From positions 1 through 43,923 of IMG/VR virus record IMGVR_UViG_3300022917_000017: 43,923 nucleotides of DNA; one strand, written 5' to 3'. Shown piece after piece: positions 8,411 to 35,657 of the stretch (positions within the stretch are counted from its first letter, which is position 1; the number at the start of each line of letters is the position of its first letter). Below the pieces are notes generated by a model. That model had not been told where the DNA came from. It worked only from the letters and a program-made list of their open reading frames with translations, and ran no database searches. The translations under genes and the position numbers were made by a program. The stretch comes from a virus (taxonomy: Duplodnaviria > Caudoviricetes).

Positions 8411-8433
8411 ATTTTCTGGGTTTAAAAGTTTAG

Positions 8434-8569
8434 CGTAGACGTCAGGCTTCGAACCTGAATGCTACCTTAGACCTTCTCAGGCTCTCGGTCGAGGATGGCC
8501 ATTTTGCCAGGCCACATGAACCGTTCAGGTTGCTACCTTATAGTGTATAACCAATTCCACCACATCTAC
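8434..8569 (-). ncRNA. tRNA-like RNA with an ~84-nt structured insert in place of the anticodon/variable arms
   Basis: Acceptor GTAGATG/CGTCTAC, D arm GTG-GAATTGGTTATA-CAC, T arm TCAGG-TTCGAAG-CCTGA; no canonical anticodon arm and no CCA. Confidence 0.75.
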
Positions 8570-8624
8570 AAAACTAACCCGGGGCTTATGGTGACCTCTT
8601 CCTTAACACCGGTCCCCGGGTGGT

Positions 8625-9498: not shown

Positions 9499-9687
9499 CT
9501 AATACGTTTCAAGTTTCTTCGGCAGCCTCTTAAAGTACACCCCGTCGTCCTTCCGGATGATCTCAACCTCGTACTTCCCCCGCCTCTTTATGTTGTTCTT
9601 GTACTGAGTAGGGTACTCCGCAGCAAGCCCTTCGAGCTTCCTTAATTCCCCTGGCTTCATGTCGTCGAACGTTGGTTTTCGTCCCAT
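9499..9687 (-). CDS. Small basic putative DNA-binding protein
   Basis: MGRKPTFDDMKPG...DGVYFKR pattern of small phage DNA-binding proteins. Confidence 0.55.
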   Translation of the reverse strand: MGRKPTFDDMKPGELRKLEGLAAEYPTQYKNNIKRRGKYEVEIIRKDDGVYFKRLPKKLETY

Positions 9688-9699
9688 AGTATTGTTTTA

Positions 9700-10245
9700 A
9701 AAAAAATGCCTCGCAATGTGTAACCTAATTACTCCCATACCTACCCGATATGTGATGTGACTTATCGACCAGTCACCACCCGAGGCTGCACGAATCGAAC
9801 GTGTTTCGTCTTTAAAATAACCTGGTTTCTCTGGGTCGGCTATGCCAGGTCACATCACCCTTCTTCGCCATGCGCAAGGCCCGTGATGTATATTTTTAAA
9901 AAGTACCGGTTTTTGCGAGGTTGCCGGTGCCCCGTGGTTGTCCGTTTTCCCTGTGGGTTGGTCCGCAACCTGTGCCAAGAGACGGACCGAAGTCCGCCCG
10001 GGGTTTCACCGGCTAGCTCTTAACGTGTAGGTAAGTTGAATCGAACAACTGAACCGGCCCGGAACCGGTGAGATACCACTTCTCAATACCCACATTTTTG
10101 CCCTTTACTAGCCTTAGCCTCATGAACCACCGAAGTGGGATAGGGTGGCGGCAGGTTAGTCTTCTCACTCCCACCAGATAGTGTAACTGGCCGGCCTCCA
10201 TTACTGGACACCGCAGGCGGTGGAGTGTGTTATCTCCCTATCTAC
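9700..10245 (-). ncRNA. Cluster of structured non-coding RNA elements
   Basis: GC-rich stems separated by A/T linkers. Minus-strand cUUCGg loops at 9983-9996 and 10127-10138, a GUAA loop at 10197-10208, and a long-range stem GATAGGG/CCCTATC. Confidence 0.7.
10026..10093 (-). tRNA. Compact atypical tRNA-like element, possible anticodon CCG (Arg)
   Basis: GTGGGTA/TACCTAC acceptor, GAGA-AGTGGTA-TCTC D arm, ACCGG-TTCCGGG-CCGGT arm, AGTTG-TTCGATT-CAACT T arm; 68 nt, no CCA. Confidence 0.65.
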
Positions 10246-10410
10246 TTAATGCTTTAAAGAAAGTGCACCGCTGCAACGGTCACTATCCCGAATCTTCGAT
10301 GCCCATTTGTAACCGCGCGATCTGACTGCGGGGGTTAAGTTTTCAGCACCTCCGATTCTAAATTCGTTTACGTTTCGCAAATCACAGCCGTATGACCCCG
10401 TCTGAACCAT
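10246..10410 (-). CDS. Possible leaderless 54-aa ORF at the start of the leftward transcript
   Basis: ATG 4 nt after the -7 box; open to TAA 10246; could instead be RNA leader. Confidence 0.3.
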   Translation of the reverse strand: MVQTGSYGCDLRNVNEFRIGGAENLTPAVRSRGYKWASKIRDSDRCSGALSLKH

Positions 10411-10414
10411 GAAC

Positions 10415-10445
10415 CAAAGGTAAGAATTAAATTTATAAAGTCAAG
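10415..10445 (-). promoter_or_regulatory. Bacteroidota primary-sigma promoter (leftward)
   Basis: CTTG-N19-TACCTTTG. Confidence 0.8.
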
Positions 10446-10479
10446 AGAAATCAGAAAAATAAAATTTATTCACAAAGCG

Positions 10480-10510
10480 TGAACAAGTATGAATTTTATT
10501 CGTATATTTA
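10480..10510 (+). promoter_or_regulatory. Probable rightward early promoter
   Basis: TATATTTA (10503-10510), a variant of TAnnTTTG, at the strand switch; weak -33. Confidence 0.5.
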
Positions 10511-10534
10511 CATCAGTAACAAAAACACAAACCC

Positions 10535-10732
10535 ATGACAGTAAAATTTGCAGACTACGTAGGCCAGACGGTAAAGGCCAGATATGCAGTGGAACGTAAC
10601 CATGACGGTGCCGACGTGCCGGTAATACGTGAAGGAGAGATAACCATTGGCATCGATCCATACGGCGATATAATGATCGATGATGATGGAAACTTTCTGT
10701 ATCCCTTTGAAGCAACTTTCGAATTACTTTAA
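10535..10732 (+). CDS. Hypothetical early protein
   Basis: 65 aa; A-rich leader; first gene of the rightward arm. Confidence 0.7.
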   Translation: MTVKFADYVGQTVKARYAVERNHDGADVPVIREGEITIGIDPYGDIMIDDDGNFLYPFEATFELL

Positions 10733-29904: not shown

Positions 29905-30115
29905 ACTTACTGCCGTCGGGGTGTTCGCATGTTTCGTCTGTCAGTCGGGTCTTTGCGATAAGAGGGCAACCGCACATGCCGCATGCGATCCATCGGCGGC
30001 GATCGCACGGCTTGCAGTGCTTCATCCTTTCACGGCTCAACGGTGTGTTTCCACCAGTTATAACAAACCACCAAGCAGTAGCAAATCTTGCGATCCACTG
30101 AACTTTTCTTCCCAT
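29900..30115 (-). CDS. Cys-rich small protein (DUF6171-like)
   Basis: R...C..C......C..CGC.L.AK......C......KW; likely ATG 30115. Confidence 0.7.
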   Translation of the reverse strand: MGRKVQWIARFATAWWFVITGGNTPLSRERMKHCKPCDRRRWIACGMCGCPLIAKTRLTDETCEHPDGSKW

Positions 30116-30804
30116 TCTTTTACCCGTTGTTCGTCTGAATATTCGTAGTGGCAACCTAGTCCGAAACGCTTGTTCTTTTCACTCATACGGGGCCTGTATA
30201 GCGCGTGTCGATCGACAAGACGCTGCGGTCCACCGATGTTACGATAGTGCATTAGAAGCAGGCTGCTATCAGCATACACAACATTACCAGTCGGTTTAGC
30301 AACGTGGCATCCGTACTTGTAATTGATCTCCTTTATCTCCTTCGGATTAAACACCGCAAGCTTTGAATAGTTCTCGTTGCGGTATCCGTTCTGTACCTCA
30401 AAGAAGTTTAGCCTTGGCATCTCATGAGACACAACATCGAATCCAATAGTTTTGATTATCGTCGCACCGGAATCACTAGCCTTGTAAAGGTGATCTCCCG
30501 TCGTTGGCCCAGAGTACAGGTTATGGCCATCCCAAAGAATCTCGTCGGCATCTACAATGATCACCCAGTCCGCTTTAGACTTCTTCCAGCAGTTGTTTTT
30601 AACTGTCAGGTAGTCGTCGTCGGATAGAACACCCGGCGTTCCGAAATGCTTAACCTCTGCACCCATTGATCTGGCGATGTCCGGCGTTCCGTCGTTCGAG
30701 TAGTTGTCGAACAGAGTCACCTTCTCGCAGAATCCGAAGTAGTGCTTCAGCGTGAGGTGTATAGTCTCACTTTCGTTCCAACCTACGATAAACGCTTCAA
30801 CCAT
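30058..30804 (-). CDS. Glycosyltransferase, GT2/GT92-like (GT-A fold)
   Basis: WNE...L.HY, FDNYS.DGT, DWVIIVDADE. Confidence 0.85.
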   Translation of the reverse strand: MVEAFIVGWNESETIHLTLKHYFGFCEKVTLFDNYSNDGTPDIARSMGAEVKHFGTPGVLSDDDYLTVKNNCWKKSKADWVIIVDADEILWDGHNLYSGPTTGDHLYKASDSGATIIKTIGFDVVSHEMPRLNFFEVQNGYRNENYSKLAVFNPKEIKEINYKYGCHVAKPTGNVVYADSSLLLMHYRNIGGPQRLVDRHALYRPRMSEKNKRFGLGCHYEYSDEQRVKEWEEKFSGSQDLLLLGGLL

Positions 30805-31670
30805 TCGAGTATCTGTTTTTTAAGTCCGTCGTATGTGTACCACTGAAAGTAAATGTCGCTGCATCGATCGATCAAATCTGCGAAAGAACCAAATACCGTA
30901 GACTTAAATGTATTATCCAAAGTTTCAACTAGGAACATATCCATCCATTCGGCGTCGCCACTAAAAAGTGGAATGTCTGTTGCCTTCCCTTGTAATGTCC
31001 AACCACCAGGAATTATGTGATCGTCAGAAATGTAAATAGGAATTGTAAGGTATTGCAAAGCTTCGCATATCCTGAACGATGTCTTCCCGTATCCACGCGG
31101 GCACAATGCAAAAACAGAATCGTTCATAACCTCGCAGAACTGTTCTATAGTATGAGGCTTTGTGCTGATATAGTAACGGTGCCGCTGGCCTAATGGTATC
31201 GCATCGATCATGTGCTGGCGCATCGGGTGTGTTATCGATCCTATGAAGCACGCGAGGTACTTCCGTTCGAGATGGTTTATTTTCTTGAACGGGTACGGAT
31301 GCGGCATGCACACCAACGGTATCGGGCAGTCAATCCTTCCGCCGCCTGATCCGAATACTTTAATATCCAGGTCTTTGAAGTCAACGAGCGGCCCGTCGTC
31401 GTACTGCGTGATCGTGAAGTACTTCTTCGATCGATCGAGTCCGTCTATGTACGCCTGTAGGTCGTGCATCTTTCGGCCCTTGCCGTATTCGTTGTTGACC
31501 TGGAATGAGCACCAGAACACTGGCAAATAGTACCTTTCGCTATAGGTTGGGTTTGCTGAAAAAATAAATTTGCAAGAATCGTAAAACCACTCTTCGAATA
31601 TCTGCTTGTTGTCAGGTGGATACTCGACCCTGATCCGGGGCCGGAACATTTCTGGTACGTTCTCTATCAT
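30783..31670 (-). CDS. Exostosin-family (GT47) glycosyltransferase
   Basis: FIGS.THP.R, S.FALCPRGYG.TSFR..EA, IPIYISD. Confidence 0.88.
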   Translation of the reverse strand: MIENVPEMFRPRIRVEYPPDNKQIFEEWFYDSCKFIFSANPTYSERYYLPVFWCSFQVNNEYGKGRKMHDLQAYIDGLDRSKKYFTITQYDDGPLVDFKDLDIKVFGSGGGRIDCPIPLVCMPHPYPFKKINHLERKYLACFIGSITHPMRQHMIDAIPLGQRHRYYISTKPHTIEQFCEVMNDSVFALCPRGYGKTSFRICEALQYLTIPIYISDDHIIPGGWTLQGKATDIPLFSGDAEWMDMFLVETLDNTFKSTVFGSFADLIDRCSDIYFQWYTYDGLKKQILEWLKRLS

Positions 31671-32290
31671 GATTTTATATAGTAAGCATCACCCCAAGAA
31701 AACGAACCGCACCACTTTGTTTCTACGCACCTGAATCCGAACTTCGCTACGTACTCGTCGATCTCTTCAACCAAAGGGCACCCTACGTACATCGGCGCTT
31801 TGTTAACCTCGATATACAACCATTTGAATTCCTCTAGTCTTGAACCTAAGCTTTTTAAAGCCATCAGTTCAGCACCTTGAAGATCCAGGTTAAGCATATC
31901 ACATTCCAAGGGGAAGTCTGCAAATAGCGTATCAAGTCGAGTTGTTGTGACCTCTATCCTGGAATCGTACACAACGTCAGGGTGCTCTGTCTTATGTATT
32001 CCAAGCTCAAGCAGCGACGAACTTTGCCCTTCATTGTTGGCAATGTTGAACCAAGTCGTGTCACCGTCTACATCGCTGATGCACGCATTTATTGCCATAG
32101 CATCCATGTACTGGCGGGTGTTCTCTTTCAGTTTTTCGTACACTTCCGGGATAGCCTCAATGAATATCATTCTATTACAGCCAATGGCGGCATACTCCGG
32201 AGCCTCCTGCCCAAAGTGCGCGCCAACGTGAAGCACGCCTTTCGGCTTCATCCCGTAGCGCTGTGCTAGTTGTCTAAAGGGTATTAGCAT
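31667..32290 (-). CDS. FkbM-family SAM methyltransferase
   Basis: HVGAHFGQE, EA.P, SSSLL, RLD, LNLDLQGAEL, EV. Confidence 0.9.
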   Translation of the reverse strand: MLIPFRQLAQRYGMKPKGVLHVGAHFGQEAPEYAAIGCNRMIFIEAIPEVYEKLKENTRQYMDAMAINACISDVDGDTTWFNIANNEGQSSSLLELGIHKTEHPDVVYDSRIEVTTTRLDTLFADFPLECDMLNLDLQGAELMALKSLGSRLEEFKWLYIEVNKAPMYVGCPLVEEIDEYVAKFGFRCVETKWCGSFSWGDAYYIKS

Positions 32291-33335
32291 CGTATTGTGT
32301 TTTTATCCAAAAATAAGTTTTCTCCATTCCTTCAAACAAGCATACTTTAGGCTCCCAATCTAACTCTTTACGTATTTTATCGTTATCCGAGTTTCTACCG
32401 TTAACCCCTACTGGCCCGTCTATGTTCTTAATTATGAACGAAAATTCTGAGTCGTCATGGATTGTAATAGCCATATCCGCTAAACGGTTTATAGTAACAG
32501 ACTCTTCACTTCCTATGTTTATCGGTTCATTATAGTCAGACTGCATCAACAGCCTCACAGCATCAATACAGTCGTCAATGTAAAGGAATGATCTGGTTTG
32601 ATTACCTGTACCCCAAACCTCGATGAACTTTGCTGTTAACCATCGATCTGCATAATCATTGAAGTATTCCTGTTCTTTTGCCTCTATTACCTTCCTGCAC
32701 ATCGCAGCAGGAGCCTTCTCCTTCCCGCCTTTCCATGTTCCCATCGGCCCGTAGATGTTGTGGAAACGACCGATGCGTACGTTCAGACCGAAGTTACGAG
32801 CGTATGACATGTACAGCCTTTCCGAGAATAGCTTTTCCCAGCCATACTCGCTATCTGGGTTGGCCGGGTACGCGTCTGTTTCCTTCAACCCTGGGTGGTT
32901 CGGTTCCTCCTGAATGTGCCCAGGGTAGATACACGCCGACGAAGAGTAGAACAGTTTGCCGCATCCGTTGCGCACCGCGAGGTCAGCGACGTTCAAGTTT
33001 ATCAGCGCGGAGTTCTTCATGATGTTCGCATCGTGCTCACCGGTGAACACGTATCCCGCACCACCCATGTCCGCAGCAAATTGGTAAACTTCATCGAAGT
33101 ACCCAGGGTTACCGACTGAGCTTTGACCCGGCCCCCACATCACACGCGAAGCAAAGTCATGGTTTGTCATGTCGCCCTGCACAAACTCGTCTAAGTCCGT
33201 TGGATACTCAAGCCTTTTGATGTCAACGCCGCGAACCCAATAACCCTCTGACTTTAATCGGCGCGCCATGTGTCCACCCACAAATCCCGCCGCTCCGAGT
33301 ACTATAGCTGTTTTCTGTCCTAATGGTATTTTCAT
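32274..33335 (-). CDS. GDP-mannose 3,5-epimerase-like extended SDR
   Basis: GAAGFVG, AADMGGAG, SSSACIYP, YGWEK, RFHNIYGP.GTW.GG.EKAPAA.CRK; likely start ATG 33335. Confidence 0.9.
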   Translation of the reverse strand: MKIPLGQKTAIVLGAAGFVGGHMARRLKSEGYWVRGVDIKRLEYPTDLDEFVQGDMTNHDFASRVMWGPGQSSVGNPGYFDEVYQFAADMGGAGYVFTGEHDANIMKNSALINLNVADLAVRNGCGKLFYSSSACIYPGHIQEEPNHPGLKETDAYPANPDSEYGWEKLFSERLYMSYARNFGLNVRIGRFHNIYGPMGTWKGGKEKAPAAMCRKVIEAKEQEYFNDYADRWLTAKFIEVWGTGNQTRSFLYIDDCIDAVRLLMQSDYNEPINIGSEESVTINRLADMAITIHDDSEFSFIIKNIDGPVGVNGRNSDNDKIRKELDWEPKVCLFEGMEKTYFWIKTQYDANTL

Positions 33336-33499
33336 ATAAATATTGATGCAATAAATAATCCAAAGAGACCAGCAGTAAGATAAAATAGAACCCAATTTAA
33401 ATTGTCATTATATCTATATCTTAATCTATGCATGGCAATAATAGAGCATACATTACTAATCCCCGTAGCGATTAGAAGTATAATTGTTATTTTACTCAT
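33332..33499 (-). CDS. 55-aa two-TM protein inside the glycan operon (not in ORF track)
   Basis: MSKITIILLIATGISNVCSII...WVLFYLTAGLFGLFIASIFI; ATGA overlaps at both ends; AT-rich. Confidence 0.7.
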   Translation of the reverse strand: MSKITIILLIATGISNVCSIIAMHRLRYRYNDNLNWVLFYLTAGLFGLFIASIFI

Positions 33500-34230
33500 A
33501 GTGCCATTATTTTACCAGTGATTTCATTGAAAAGCCCTGGCACTTTCCGGTTGTGTTCCTTGTAGTGCGACCCGTCGTGTATCAGGTGGTCGTACTGCAT
33601 CCCGGGAACTACGTACATCGCGTTGCCTGCCTTCAGCCAGTTGTAAAGTTGGTAGACAGTATCGCAGGTCCACGGGTTAAAGTTAGGATCGAACACACGA
33701 AGGTACTCTTTAACAGGCACAACGTAGTTCGCGCAGTTGATCAGGCAGTCGAAACGCGTGTCTGCCATGGTTGGTATGTGCTGCTTGATCGAATCCTTTG
33801 TAAGGTACGATGCCGCGAACGGAGCATAATTGAAGTGCGGTCGTGCGAATTCAGGGGCCAGTATCGTCTTCCCGTCCCAGTATTGCTCCGGAACTTCGAA
33901 CAGCGCGTCAAGGTATGACGTGTCGATCACGTTGTCGCTGTCGAGTATGATCGCATACTGGTATTCAGGATCTACTTTTGACAAAGCCATTGCCTTGTTG
34001 TGATAGCATCCTAGATTCTTACCGTTCTTAAAAAGAATCATCTTACCAACGTTCATTGCTTGGAATTCCCCAGCTACCTCTCGATAGAACTTATCGTCAG
34101 AGCAGTCGTCAGAAATTATAATCTCACCAATCCGGGGATCAGTGATAATATTCTCGAATGACTTGAAAAGCAAGTCTACCCGATTGTAGTTCGTAATACA
34201 CAGCGCTACTTTCCGTTGTTCGCCCACCAT
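33496..34230 (-). CDS. GT2-family glycosyltransferase
   Basis: ITNYNR, EIIISDDCS, N.G...NK, ILDSDN; likely start ATG 34230. Confidence 0.88.
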   Translation of the reverse strand: MVGEQRKVALCITNYNRVDLLFKSFENIITDPRIGEIIISDDCSDDKFYREVAGEFQAMNVGKMILFKNGKNLGCYHNKAMALSKVDPEYQYAIILDSDNVIDTSYLDALFEVPEQYWDGKTILAPEFARPHFNYAPFAASYLTKDSIKQHIPTMADTRFDCLINCANYVVPVKEYLRVFDPNFNPWTCDTVYQLYNWLKAGNAMYVVPGMQYDHLIHDGSHYKEHNRKVPGLFNEITGKIMAL

Positions 34231-34859
34231 ACAAAACCGTCCTCCGTGTTTATAACTGGAAAAGATGCGTTCACTGCTCTTGTTACACCTGGGTAGCTCA
34301 CGTGCTTGTAGTCGTGCCCTGCGATTATGCCTCCTGGCCGTACGCACTGACGCCAAAGTTCAATGTCTGCCATTACATCACCGAAGGTATGACGACCGTC
34401 TATGAAAACGAAATCCAACTTCTCACCTGGGTCTAACTCGTCGAAAAGAACAGTGGCCCATGCTTCGTGAGAAGACTGTCTGATAAGTTCCTGACGGTAA
34501 TCGAATCTTTTAAGCCGGTGTAGCGCGTGTAGGTAAAGCTCTTCGTACTCGGCCTCTCCGAACTTCTTACCAGCTTGTAAAGCGTCAACTCCGCCGTTGT
34601 CAGTAAGTAGTGATTCAGGCATCGCGTACCCGTCCGTGCTGTTGTAGTCCGGCGTGTACGGATCAACGCAATACAGCTTCTTTAAACCAACGCAATTCGA
34701 TAGCATAGCGTCAGCATGCCCGCCGTACGCTACGCCTATCTCAGCGCCTGTAGTGAATCCTCGCTCGTTGATTATGCGCGGCATCACGTGGTAGTAAAGC
34801 TTTCCCCAGTTCTCGTCCGCGTCCCGGGCCATGCTCTTAATGATCTTGTGTAGTTCCAT
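34206..34859 (-). CDS. Class I SAM methyltransferase (Methyltransf_24-like)
   Basis: GAEIGVAYG, VDP, DFVFIDGRH, VRPGGIIAGHDY. Confidence 0.9.
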   Translation of the reverse strand: MELHKIIKSMARDADENWGKLYYHVMPRIINERGFTTGAEIGVAYGGHADAMLSNCVGLKKLYCVDPYTPDYNSTDGYAMPESLLTDNGGVDALQAGKKFGEAEYEELYLHALHRLKRFDYRQELIRQSSHEAWATVLFDELDPGEKLDFVFIDGRHTFGDVMADIELWRQCVRPGGIIAGHDYKHVSYPGVTRAVNASFPVINTEDGFVWWANNGK

Positions 34860-34862
34860 AAT

Positions 34863-35657
34863 TTATCTCGTGTGTATTTGAATCCATCCTTCGGGAATTA
34901 AATCTACTGGTGGCGACAGAATTCCCGACTGGCTGCCGAACCAGGTTTGATACGATGGTGTGATGATCGTTTTATTCGGATTAAGTCCAAGGTATGAAGA
35001 CCACCATGCGAATGTACTATTCGAGTTTATGTGATGGTCACAGGAAGCAAGTACCGAAAAGTCGTCCCATTCATCACCACAAAACGAAAATTTCAAATCG
35101 TAAAATGATGATTGTGGAATGTTCTTCTGGCACCACTCTATATCATCACTTGCGACAATAAACCCTTTTATTGGCTTATCAAGCATGCGAAACATTGCCT
35201 CGTGAATGTACTCAATAGGCACTGGCGGGAAGCTACCCGCATGCTGAACATAATCACCACGACGAACATGGACAGAGCAATATCCGGATCGATCAGACCA
35301 CCTTACATACTTACCGAAAGTATCTTTAACTTCATCCTTCGCATTCTCAAAGTACTTCTCTGACTGGAAGAACCCGACAAGCTCTACGCCTTCCGGGAAG
35401 AAAGGTATATCGTGGTAGTTGAACCACTCGTTATCCCAGCCGCGCTGATGCTCCGAGTAACGACGGTATGATCCACCGCAGTACGGCAGATCCGGCATGA
35501 ACCGGTCAACCTGGTTCGCCTGGAACCCCTGCTCTACGTAGCCCTTCTTGATCCCCCACTTGACTCCGTACTTCTTAGCGTAGCCTATGCAGGCGGCTAT
35601 CTGGAACATGTTGTTTGCAAGCCGACCGATGAACTTCGGATATACTAGTGCGCTCAT
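34863..35657 (-). CDS. GT11 alpha-1,2-fucosyltransferase-like
   Basis: GRLANNMF, GFFQSEKYF, VHVRRGDY, SDDIEWC, NSTFAWW. Confidence 0.92.
   Translation of the reverse strand: MSALVYPKFIGRLANNMFQIAACIGYAKKYGVKWGIKKGYVEQGFQANQVDRFMPDLPYCGGSYRRYSEHQRGWDNEWFNYHDIPFFPEGVELVGFFQSEKYFENAKDEVKDTFGKYVRWSDRSGYCSVHVRRGDYVQHAGSFPPVPIEYIHEAMFRMLDKPIKGFIVASDDIEWCQKNIPQSSFYDLKFSFCGDEWDDFSVLASCDHHINSNSTFAWWSSYLGLNPNKTIITPSYQTWFGSQSGILSPPVDLIPEGWIQIHTR

Follow-up and report, generated by a model that had tools for sequence, protein, structure and literature searches.

A hypervariable row of candidate structured RNAs and tRNA mimics at the head of the leftward operon of a soil-type phage

Background

What does a phage with a compact genome keep in the one long interval that holds no genes? 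The window considered here, by which we mean the whole stretch of DNA analysed (43,923 nt), is the entire 43.9-kb record of a soil-type phage that encodes, among others, terminase, portal, head protease, an Erf-like annealing protein and an exonuclease. The nearest annotated relatives of its terminase belong to Flavobacterium, Bacteroides, Polaribacter and Cellulophaga phages, and from this kinship the host is likely a member of the Bacteroidota. The virion operon also contains glycosyltransferase, methyltransferase and nucleotide-sugar epimerase genes in one block (30058-35657, minus strand), which suggests glycosylation of the virion or of the phage DNA.

The interval in question (9688-10534) separates a short rightward block of recombination and replication genes from a long leftward same-strand run, which opens with a 62-aa ORF and NinG and includes the packaging and virion genes. 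With 847 nt it is the largest gap in the accepted gene set, the runner-up measuring 396 nt, and an initial annotation had singled out 9700-10245, within it, as the largest gene-free stretch. The same annotation read that part as an array of structured RNAs transcribed from the minus strand, which might serve antitermination, anti-defence decoys or regulation. Here, we ask whether such an array exists, what it is composed of, and which of these roles suits it best.

Results

Layout of the gap

Arranged in the presumed direction of transcription, the leftward unit comprises the following features:

10415..10444, minus strand: Bacteroidota-type promoter-like site, TTG...TACCTTTG, heading the leftward unit; one of five two-box sites on the minus strand
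10263..10358, minus strand: module B, a long, internally looped stem whose AGUCAGAUC loop is invariant, followed by a hairpin whose GUUGCAGC loop is likewise invariant and by a U-rich tail
10100..10242, minus strand: module A, an RNA of ~145 nt with a 7-bp closing stem P1, an inner three-way domain, a UUCG hairpin and a predicted 8-bp pseudoknot
10025..10093, minus strand: module C, a compact tRNA-Arg(CCG)-like cloverleaf called by ARAGORN; z -2.0; not found in relatives
9936..10021, minus strand: modules D and E, a stem-closed unit with a UUCG hairpin and, after it, a weakly folding segment; both private to the window; z -0.4 and 0.1; weakly supported
9905..9934, minus strand: module F, a predicted H-type pseudoknot of 30 nt whose third loop is A-rich
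9852..9889, minus strand: module G, closed by ACAUCAC/GUGAUGU; private to the window; z -1.7 on the minus and -3.3 on the plus strand
9820..9850, minus strand: module H, a loop closed by ACCUGG/CCAGGU; private to the window; z -2.5
9789..9803, minus strand: orphan T-arm hairpin, CACG-TTCGATT-CGTG; 15/15 nt identical in the related contig L012
9708..9786, minus strand: module I, a multibranch structure closed by GCCUCG/CGAGGC; private to the window; z -3.9 on the minus and -2.1 on the plus strand
9688..9702, minus strand: AU-rich anchor, likely also where translation of the first gene is initiated; kept in L012, L013, L014 and L016
9499..9687, minus strand: gene of a 62-aa basic protein, the first gene behind the array in all five relatives

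The -7 box of the promoter-like site, whose boxes follow the Bacteroidota consensus, is kept in L012, L014 and L090, i.e. in 3/3 relatives reaching that far. Three AT-rich 15-nt repeats (10422-10499, plus strand; spacing 33 and 30 nt), one of which overlaps an inverted repeat, lie between the divergent promoters and are likely operator sites. A private first module occupies 10365-10392 (minus strand) and consists of a start of ~12 nt and a short hairpin; this start resembles the beginning of Bacteroidota type II-C CRISPR repeats, and the module is a possible RNA anti-CRISPR.

At the other end of the array, the 62-aa protein matched no Pfam or PHROG family. AlphaFold predicts an alpha/beta fold for it (pLDDT 79), Foldseek returned no match at E<=0.001, Atlas hits stayed under 0.8, and the best VIA match, the RNA-binding KhpB/EloR, has a Z of 4.6, which is within the noise range. 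A scan with the protein alone found no viral locus, and a scan with an alignment found only the complete relative G001, plus two weak (28%) genome hits.

Signals across the array

The stems that had been named initially (GATAGGG/CCCTATC, CACTCC/GGAGTG, ACCTGG/CCAGGT, ACATCAC/GTGATGT and GCCTCG/CGAGGC) are all present, as is the multibranch domain, although its end falls at 10242 (10139-10242) and not at 10241, and the T-arm placed near 9789-9803 was found there on the minus strand. The claim that UUCG and GNRA hairpins are confined to the minus strand withstood counting, with three on the minus and none on the plus strand (shuffle mean 0.22; at least three in 2/1000 dinucleotide shuffles), and TTTAAA-type linkers are indeed dense, with four in 9690-10260 against 0.29 expected and 22 in the window overall. 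The description of the modules as GC-rich does not extend to the region as a whole, which at ~50% GC equals the genome. New relative to that annotation are a second T-arm within the tRNA-like cloverleaf at 10025-10093, the predicted pseudoknot within the multibranch domain, the small pseudoknot at 9905-9934 that is common to relatives, and the extension of the array upstream to ~10410 with the constant module at 10263-10358.

Perfect stems of at least 6 bp number 21 in the region against 10.5 ± 3.3, a count reached by 0/300 dinucleotide shuffles, and the two T-arms of the region, the sole two in the 43.9-kb window with both strands counted, compare with none in 1000 shuffles. Folding energy in the region is no better than in the rest of the genome: the whole-region MFE has a z of -0.97 on the minus and -0.74 on the plus strand, and 80-nt windows average -0.13 inside (n=12) and -0.26 outside (n=1076). 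The z-scores of individual modules span -3.9 (I) to +0.8 (F); module A scores -0.3, which can occur if a fold depends on pseudoknots; among array segments of the relatives, 2/8 reach z ~-2 on the sense strand, the coding-control mean being -1.06.

The Rfam check that the initial annotation had proposed gave no match reaching the gathering score anywhere in the window, and the search of 9500-10600 returned only a chance-level P14 match (E 1.3). Likewise, blastn found no match of the region in 50,697 annotated phage records, nor of modules A and B in 72,556 plasmids. No RNA run appears among 12 sequencing runs listed as containing the sequence, which speaks neither for nor against transcription. 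The three short ORFs in the gap match no PHROG. In the comparison between phages, which covered ORF 10013-10201 and a leader ORF while ORF 9757-10023 overlies private sequence, the former has its ATG changed to AGG in 4/4 relatives and its frame broken in L016, and the latter runs for 54, 11, 41 and 66 codons in different phages with unrelated sequences. Hence the concern, raised at the outset, that short ORFs here might prove to be conserved proteins does not apply to the compared ORFs, which are not conserved.

Exchange of modules between relatives

A 22-nt motif scan of metagenome contigs yielded six loci, of which two (L011 and L015) are the same as the window over the region and were excluded from all counts, and four (L012, L013, L014 and L016) come from different phages, referred to here as the close relatives. 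The terminase scan gave 33 viral loci, one of them with the same locus: L090, which is the complete record G001 and shares about 65-90% identity with the window where blocks align. Further array variants are found on contigs of runs X3, X6 and X12, those of X6 and X12 being two more fillings between conserved flanks; a long contig of run X2 shares the spacings of L012 (236 and 188/189 nt), represents the same phage and is not independent. The NinG scan led to five distant loci, all without array modules, and in pattern scans of viral contigs the architecture of module A recurred in 0/4 and 0/73 matches, that of module B in 1/49 and that of module F in 1/11, both of the latter being L090/G001. 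A 15-nt match in L002 was discarded as falling in coding sequence.

In 4/4 close relatives identity is 86-92% in module A and 93-96% in the 62-aa gene, and the 412 nt between the two give way to 20, 122, 214 or 476 nt, whose identity is that of shuffled controls. Since the middle is replaced while the flanks stay, the stretch behaves as a row of exchangeable units and not as one large RNA, and it is very probably an array of RNA cassettes. Module B is present in 3/3 relatives with a full array, module A in 4/5 related contigs and also in runs X3, X6 and X12 (absent from the complete G001), and module F in 2/5 and in run X6. The latter, near-identical in L012, L090 and run X6, occupies differing places in the arrays: it precedes B in L090 but follows A in the window. 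No homolog of modules C, D, E, G, H and I was found among the relatives compared, and their structures are therefore single-sequence predictions. Thus, the minus-strand array of structured RNA modules that had been proposed is supported by relatives that keep, lose, reorder and replace modules as units, and by changes in module A that fit the minus strand. Swapping goes beyond the RNA row, as the window and G001 likewise show turnover of small genes in the adjacent 6-10 kb region, which makes the row part of a wider accessory region.

Structure and conservation of modules A, B and F

The alignment of module A comprises 42 pairs in seven helices, with 99% of 210 cells paired and five compensatory pairs; this pairing is reached by 0/500 shuffles, and slid controls are 33-51% paired, where the alignment consists of five closely related rows and the shuffle control ignores relatedness. 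Its GNRA loop is kept (GUAA to GAAA) and G-U pairs arise on the minus strand. P1 and the inner closing stem never vary across the five rows, so that P1 is without covariation support. The predicted 8-bp pseudoknot (10153-10160 with 10107-10114; a second one is possible) has 95% of its cells paired, with one U-A/U-G change, an A-C mismatch in 2/5 rows and no compensatory change; RNAalifold offers a nested alternative, and both the second pseudoknot and the arrangement of the junction have alternatives. A covariance model of module A gave no match in 38 viral records related by terminase or NinG, of which 7 are at least 90% complete, and in the window it found only the one known copy; no Rfam family matches the module. 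Its helix order is similar to that of a group I intron core; yet, judged by inspection against the core features, it is without P6 and without the G-C pair at the guanosine site, and this assignment was rejected.

Module B shows a terminator-like match at its hairpin and U tract, has a z of -1.9, and 4/30 of its predicted pairs are compensatory. Loops in A and B are self-complementary and might promote the formation of oligomers. In module F, 10/10 pairs are kept in three sequences, with one G-U/G-C change and no compensatory change. Modules A and B apparently constitute at least two undescribed RNA families, although they, or module F, could be listed among the 10,006 candidate viral RNAs of PMC10690425.

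A further module is shared by L090 (6314-6365) and a matching 52 nt of L012; it has a predicted pseudoknot, a compensatory change and no Rfam match, and its outer stem looks like P1 of pistol ribozymes. In the array of the window itself, the core patterns of hammerhead, pistol and twister ribozymes do not occur.

tRNA mimicry

Each of 6/6 arrays contains one to three T-arms on the sense strand and 0 on the antisense strand. Module C has a 7-bp acceptor, a GG in the D-loop, a UUCGAUU T-loop, U33 and a purine at 37 in both the ARAGORN structure and the MFE fold; by inspection its core is 2-3 nt short, and no CCA is encoded. It has the cloverleaf of a canonical tRNA but falls short of a full-length core, which includes position 26, a 5-bp anticodon stem and a variable loop of 4-5 nt, and of a scoring match to the Rfam tRNA model (none to RF00005 at E<=10). 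The CGG codon is not rare in the window (130/678 Arg codons). ARAGORN with a relaxed score and introns produced many spurious calls, which were disregarded.

The relatives contain more unusual forms. The L012 copy of the orphan T-arm is embedded in a tRNA-Leu-like RNA where the anticodon would be, and this contig has tRNA bodies in which long inserts replace the anticodon arm, giving swollen anticodon arms. Elements that resemble circularly permuted tRNAs, in which the T-arm precedes the D-arm, occur in L013 and L016 (~25-95) and in L090 (6734-6794). In addition, L014 (2094-2236) and L090 (6466-6608) carry, directly before module B, a mini tmRNA-like RNA of ~145 nt with a G3-U70 acceptor, an A discriminator, a T-like arm and a predicted pseudoknot, which is conserved between these distant phages with paired changes; in both it has no Rfam match and no clear conserved tag frame. 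The acceptor and elbow of a tRNA are the parts read by processing enzymes and tRNA-binding toxins. The tRNA-like RNAs of the arrays keep these parts, mostly in forms unlikely to decode.

A second RNA cluster lies in the same operon (8433-8621, minus strand). Its conserved, stem-closed module at 8576-8621 is present in L013, L014, L016 and L090, and is followed by a tRNA-Leu-like body (8433-8569) with a ~70-nt insert in the anticodon arm and a -7-box-like sequence just before it. At this site L016 has a plain tRNA-Leu(TAA), L013 a tRNA-Leu with a long variable region, and L014 none.

Discussion

The modular build, the gain, loss and reordering of modules among close relatives, the covariation in A and B, and the tRNA arms in every array are established. 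The reading that in our opinion explains them best, and to which we assign a probability of roughly 40%, is a hypervariable polycistron that carries stable RNAs and tRNA mimics and probably serves counter-defence. A polycistronic precursor is likely, given the one conserved promoter-like site, and its processing into separate RNAs appears reasonably probable. Of the three functions offered at the outset, counter-defence decoys fit best with the hypervariable content and the tRNA mimics; as the main role of the array, we put counter-defence forward only tentatively.

We hypothesize that transcription would proceed leftward from 10415-10444 and read through the weak terminator-like hairpin of module B. 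Single RNAs would then be freed by host RNase P/Z at the tRNA-like modules, and a single-strand endonuclease would cut the AU-rich TTTAAA linkers, leaving stable small RNAs. These could act as a changing decoy or supplement set against tRNA-cleaving or RNA-antitoxin-type defences. The cassettes themselves would be exchanged by recombination at the conserved anchors, plausibly aided by the neighbouring Erf-like annealing protein and exonuclease. The decoy step is based on the hypervariable content together with published precedent: tRNAs of phages are described as overcoming retron-Eco7 and PrrC (PMC11555353) and are predicted to avoid anticodon nucleases (PMC10264068), and an RNA of phage phiTE is described as mimicking the ToxI antitoxin (PMC10286901). 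The tRNAs of such published cases are decoding-competent, whereas the window and its relatives carry mostly mimics.

The alternative that survives best, though we regard it as unlikely, is a decaying tRNA/stable-RNA cluster composed of mobile RNA genes and their remnants, in which only A, B and F would be selected, for housekeeping such as translation supply, and the private modules would be neutral passengers. The plain tRNA-Leu genes of relatives at the second cluster, the many private segments that fold no better than shuffles, and the degenerate state of module C would all be expected of such a cluster. However, stems, tetraloops and T-arms occur well above chance, unusual tRNA-like forms are kept between the distant L014 and L090 with paired changes, and a gap of 847 nt is maintained in a compact genome.

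A cis-acting leader is rather less plausible. Modules B and A would here modify or pause RNA polymerase, as in put-like antitermination, or control translation of the leftward operon, and the rest would be inserted cargo. The position of the stretch, behind a promoter-like site and ahead of the gene that opens a long same-strand run, suits such a role, as do the presence of module B in 4/4 full arrays, its conserved terminal hairpin and U tract, and the location of module A just 20 nt from the start codon in L013. Distances are nevertheless anything but constant: those from the promoter to B range from about 70 to over 500 nt, and those from A to the start codon from 20 to 476 nt; moreover, module A is absent from the complete relative G001, and the tRNA mimics would be left unexplained.

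Compatible with the counter-defence polycistron, and improbable in its own right, is the idea that module A is a self-cleaving ribozyme working like the HDV-like and theta ribozymes, which would cut 5' of its first paired G (10242) and trim upstream precursor RNA. Its strand order is that of the HDV-like class: P1 (7 bp in 5/5 rows, starting with G, where the class has 6-7 bp beginning with G at the cleavage site), an insertion, P2, a short linker, P1, a hairpin, CUAA and P2. The part of P2, a pseudoknot crossing P1, would be played by the predicted 8-bp helix. The CUAA, whose C lies at 10117 on the minus strand, is invariant in 5/5 rows before the 3' strand of P2, and thus matches at sequence level the J4/2 of HDV-like ribozymes, which begins with the catalytic C according to PMC10879173. 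Its Bacteroidota-phage, tRNA-like neighbourhood also resembles that of theta ribozymes, described in the same source as cutting beside tRNAs in Bacteroidota phages, and in L014 a tRNA-like RNA ends 8 nt upstream of module A. The remaining features speak against membership. In HDV-like ribozymes, P3 has 3 bp and L3 has 7 nt. These lengths agree with our parse of an example in PMC10879173, and P3-L3-P3 accordingly needs 13 nt where module A leaves at most 8 between P2 and P1. The residue right after the 3' strand of P1, a G that pairs with L3 in the canonical P1.1, is C in 5/5 rows, and the insertion of ~75 nt is foreign to the class. A canonical HDV-like descriptor, used without a positive control, had 0 sense-strand matches in 11 sequences, and module A has no Rfam ribozyme match. 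Nor is its spacing to the upstream RNA end fixed: tRNA-associated ribozymes cleave within 5 nt of the tRNA 3' end, and the 8 nt of L014 exceed this, with none that close in the other four. Module A is therefore not filed as HDV-like.

A bolder version, which we likewise judge improbable, would make the locus an RNA-only counter-defence hotspot, comparable to an anti-defence gene island, whose precursor is processed by module A as a new HDV-related self-cleaving fold lacking P3/L3. The decoys in such a hotspot would be tRNA bodies with anticodon-arm cargo, permuted tRNAs, the mini tmRNA-like RNA and antitoxin-like pseudoknots.

It is very unlikely that the region forms one large ornate RNA of ~550 nt in the manner of ROOL or GOLLD. 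Several long-range complementarities that could hold it together are found (e.g. 10143-10156 with 9768-9781), and the size of ROOL, given as 550-598 nt in PMC12990946, corresponds; but the 3' partners are missing in 4/4 close relatives in which module A is still 86-92% identical, no GOLLD or ROOL match was obtained, and module swapping largely refutes this reading. Finally, overlooked small proteins or a DNA element such as an origin or operator array are hardly credible, for although ORFs of 54-88 codons overlap the gap, the slope of the cumulative GC skew changes nearby and the gap lies between divergent promoters, the starts and frames of the compared ORFs are unconserved, compensatory changes that tolerate G-U pairs, along with tetraloops and T-arms confined to one strand, indicate RNA, and no iteron-like repeats occur inside the stretch.

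What would follow from a row of exchangeable RNAs? Phage counter-defence has been looked for almost wholly among small proteins. Here, close relatives exchange whole non-coding RNA units, which leaves a short, clonable list (30-150 nt) with natural presence/absence variation, and such variation makes the role of non-tRNA stable RNAs in phage tRNA clusters directly testable. Module A, an uncatalogued and strongly conserved RNA with a ribozyme-like topology, can be tested in vitro.

Comparison with known systems

A search of the literature did not find an exchangeable row of RNA mimics described, and several known systems resemble the array in part. GOLLD (RF02032) and ROOL (RF03087) are likewise large structured non-coding regions near tRNAs in phages; in contrast to these single conserved folds, the present locus is a row of exchangeable units without a model match. 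Neither model has a match in the window or in G001 (among the controls, ROOL has none and GOLLD one of 14, below cut-off), and a continuous fold does not agree with the replacement or deletion of 412 of the ~550 nt in 4/4 close relatives.

The permuted tRNA mimics of L090, L013 and L016 resemble Y RNAs (YrlA, RF02553; PMC4201824). The L090 element reaches 39.8 bits (E 1.8e-6) against the YrlA model, below its 69-bit cut-off, and this model also matches below cut-off in 13/14 control genomes. In the window the model has no match and no such element exists; furthermore, no Ro60/TROVE gene was found in G001 (one record searched), nor any such PHROG among the window's 56 proteins. With neither a score above the cut-off nor a Ro60/TROVE gene within 4 kb, a Y RNA identity was not assigned.

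Closer in presumed function are RNAs directed against defence systems. Type III antitoxin RNAs form H-type pseudoknots of ~35 nt with A-rich flanks, and the Racr RNAs are reportedly small structured RNAs with which phages counter defence. Like the pseudo-ToxI of phiTE (PMC10286901), the modules are small structured RNAs in a variable phage region, and module F in particular is a ToxI-sized predicted pseudoknot with A-rich flanks. It is present as a single copy per array and not as tandem repeats, and was not assigned as a type III antitoxin mimic; the array modules have no Rfam match to ToxI or CRISPR-repeat families. Similarly, the phage tRNAs active against retron-Eco7 and PrrC (PMC11555353) are tRNA-type RNAs encoded in a variable phage region.

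The kind that comes closest to the array is the phage tRNA cluster with extra small stable RNAs, as in T4 and T5, where such RNAs include rnaC/rnaD, 'species 1 and 2' and the T5 tRNA-region RNAs. The T4/T5 tRNA genes are treated in PMC4810235, according to which RNase III is involved in T4 tRNA maturation. The array differs from these clusters in that it contains almost no canonical tRNA, stands first in the long leftward operon of a phage of 44 kb, swaps its units between phages with flanks over 90% identical, and has no sequence match among the annotated phage records searched. In common with them, it lines up tRNA-shaped RNAs and other structured RNAs behind one promoter without intervening genes, includes an RNA of ~140 nt, and varies in content between strains. 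What defines such clusters, namely structured RNAs other than tRNAs that are lined up with tRNA-shaped genes and have a promoter in common with them, is found here as well, known in this case from sequence. Thus, the array is a real feature, close in kind to phage tRNA/stable-RNA clusters.
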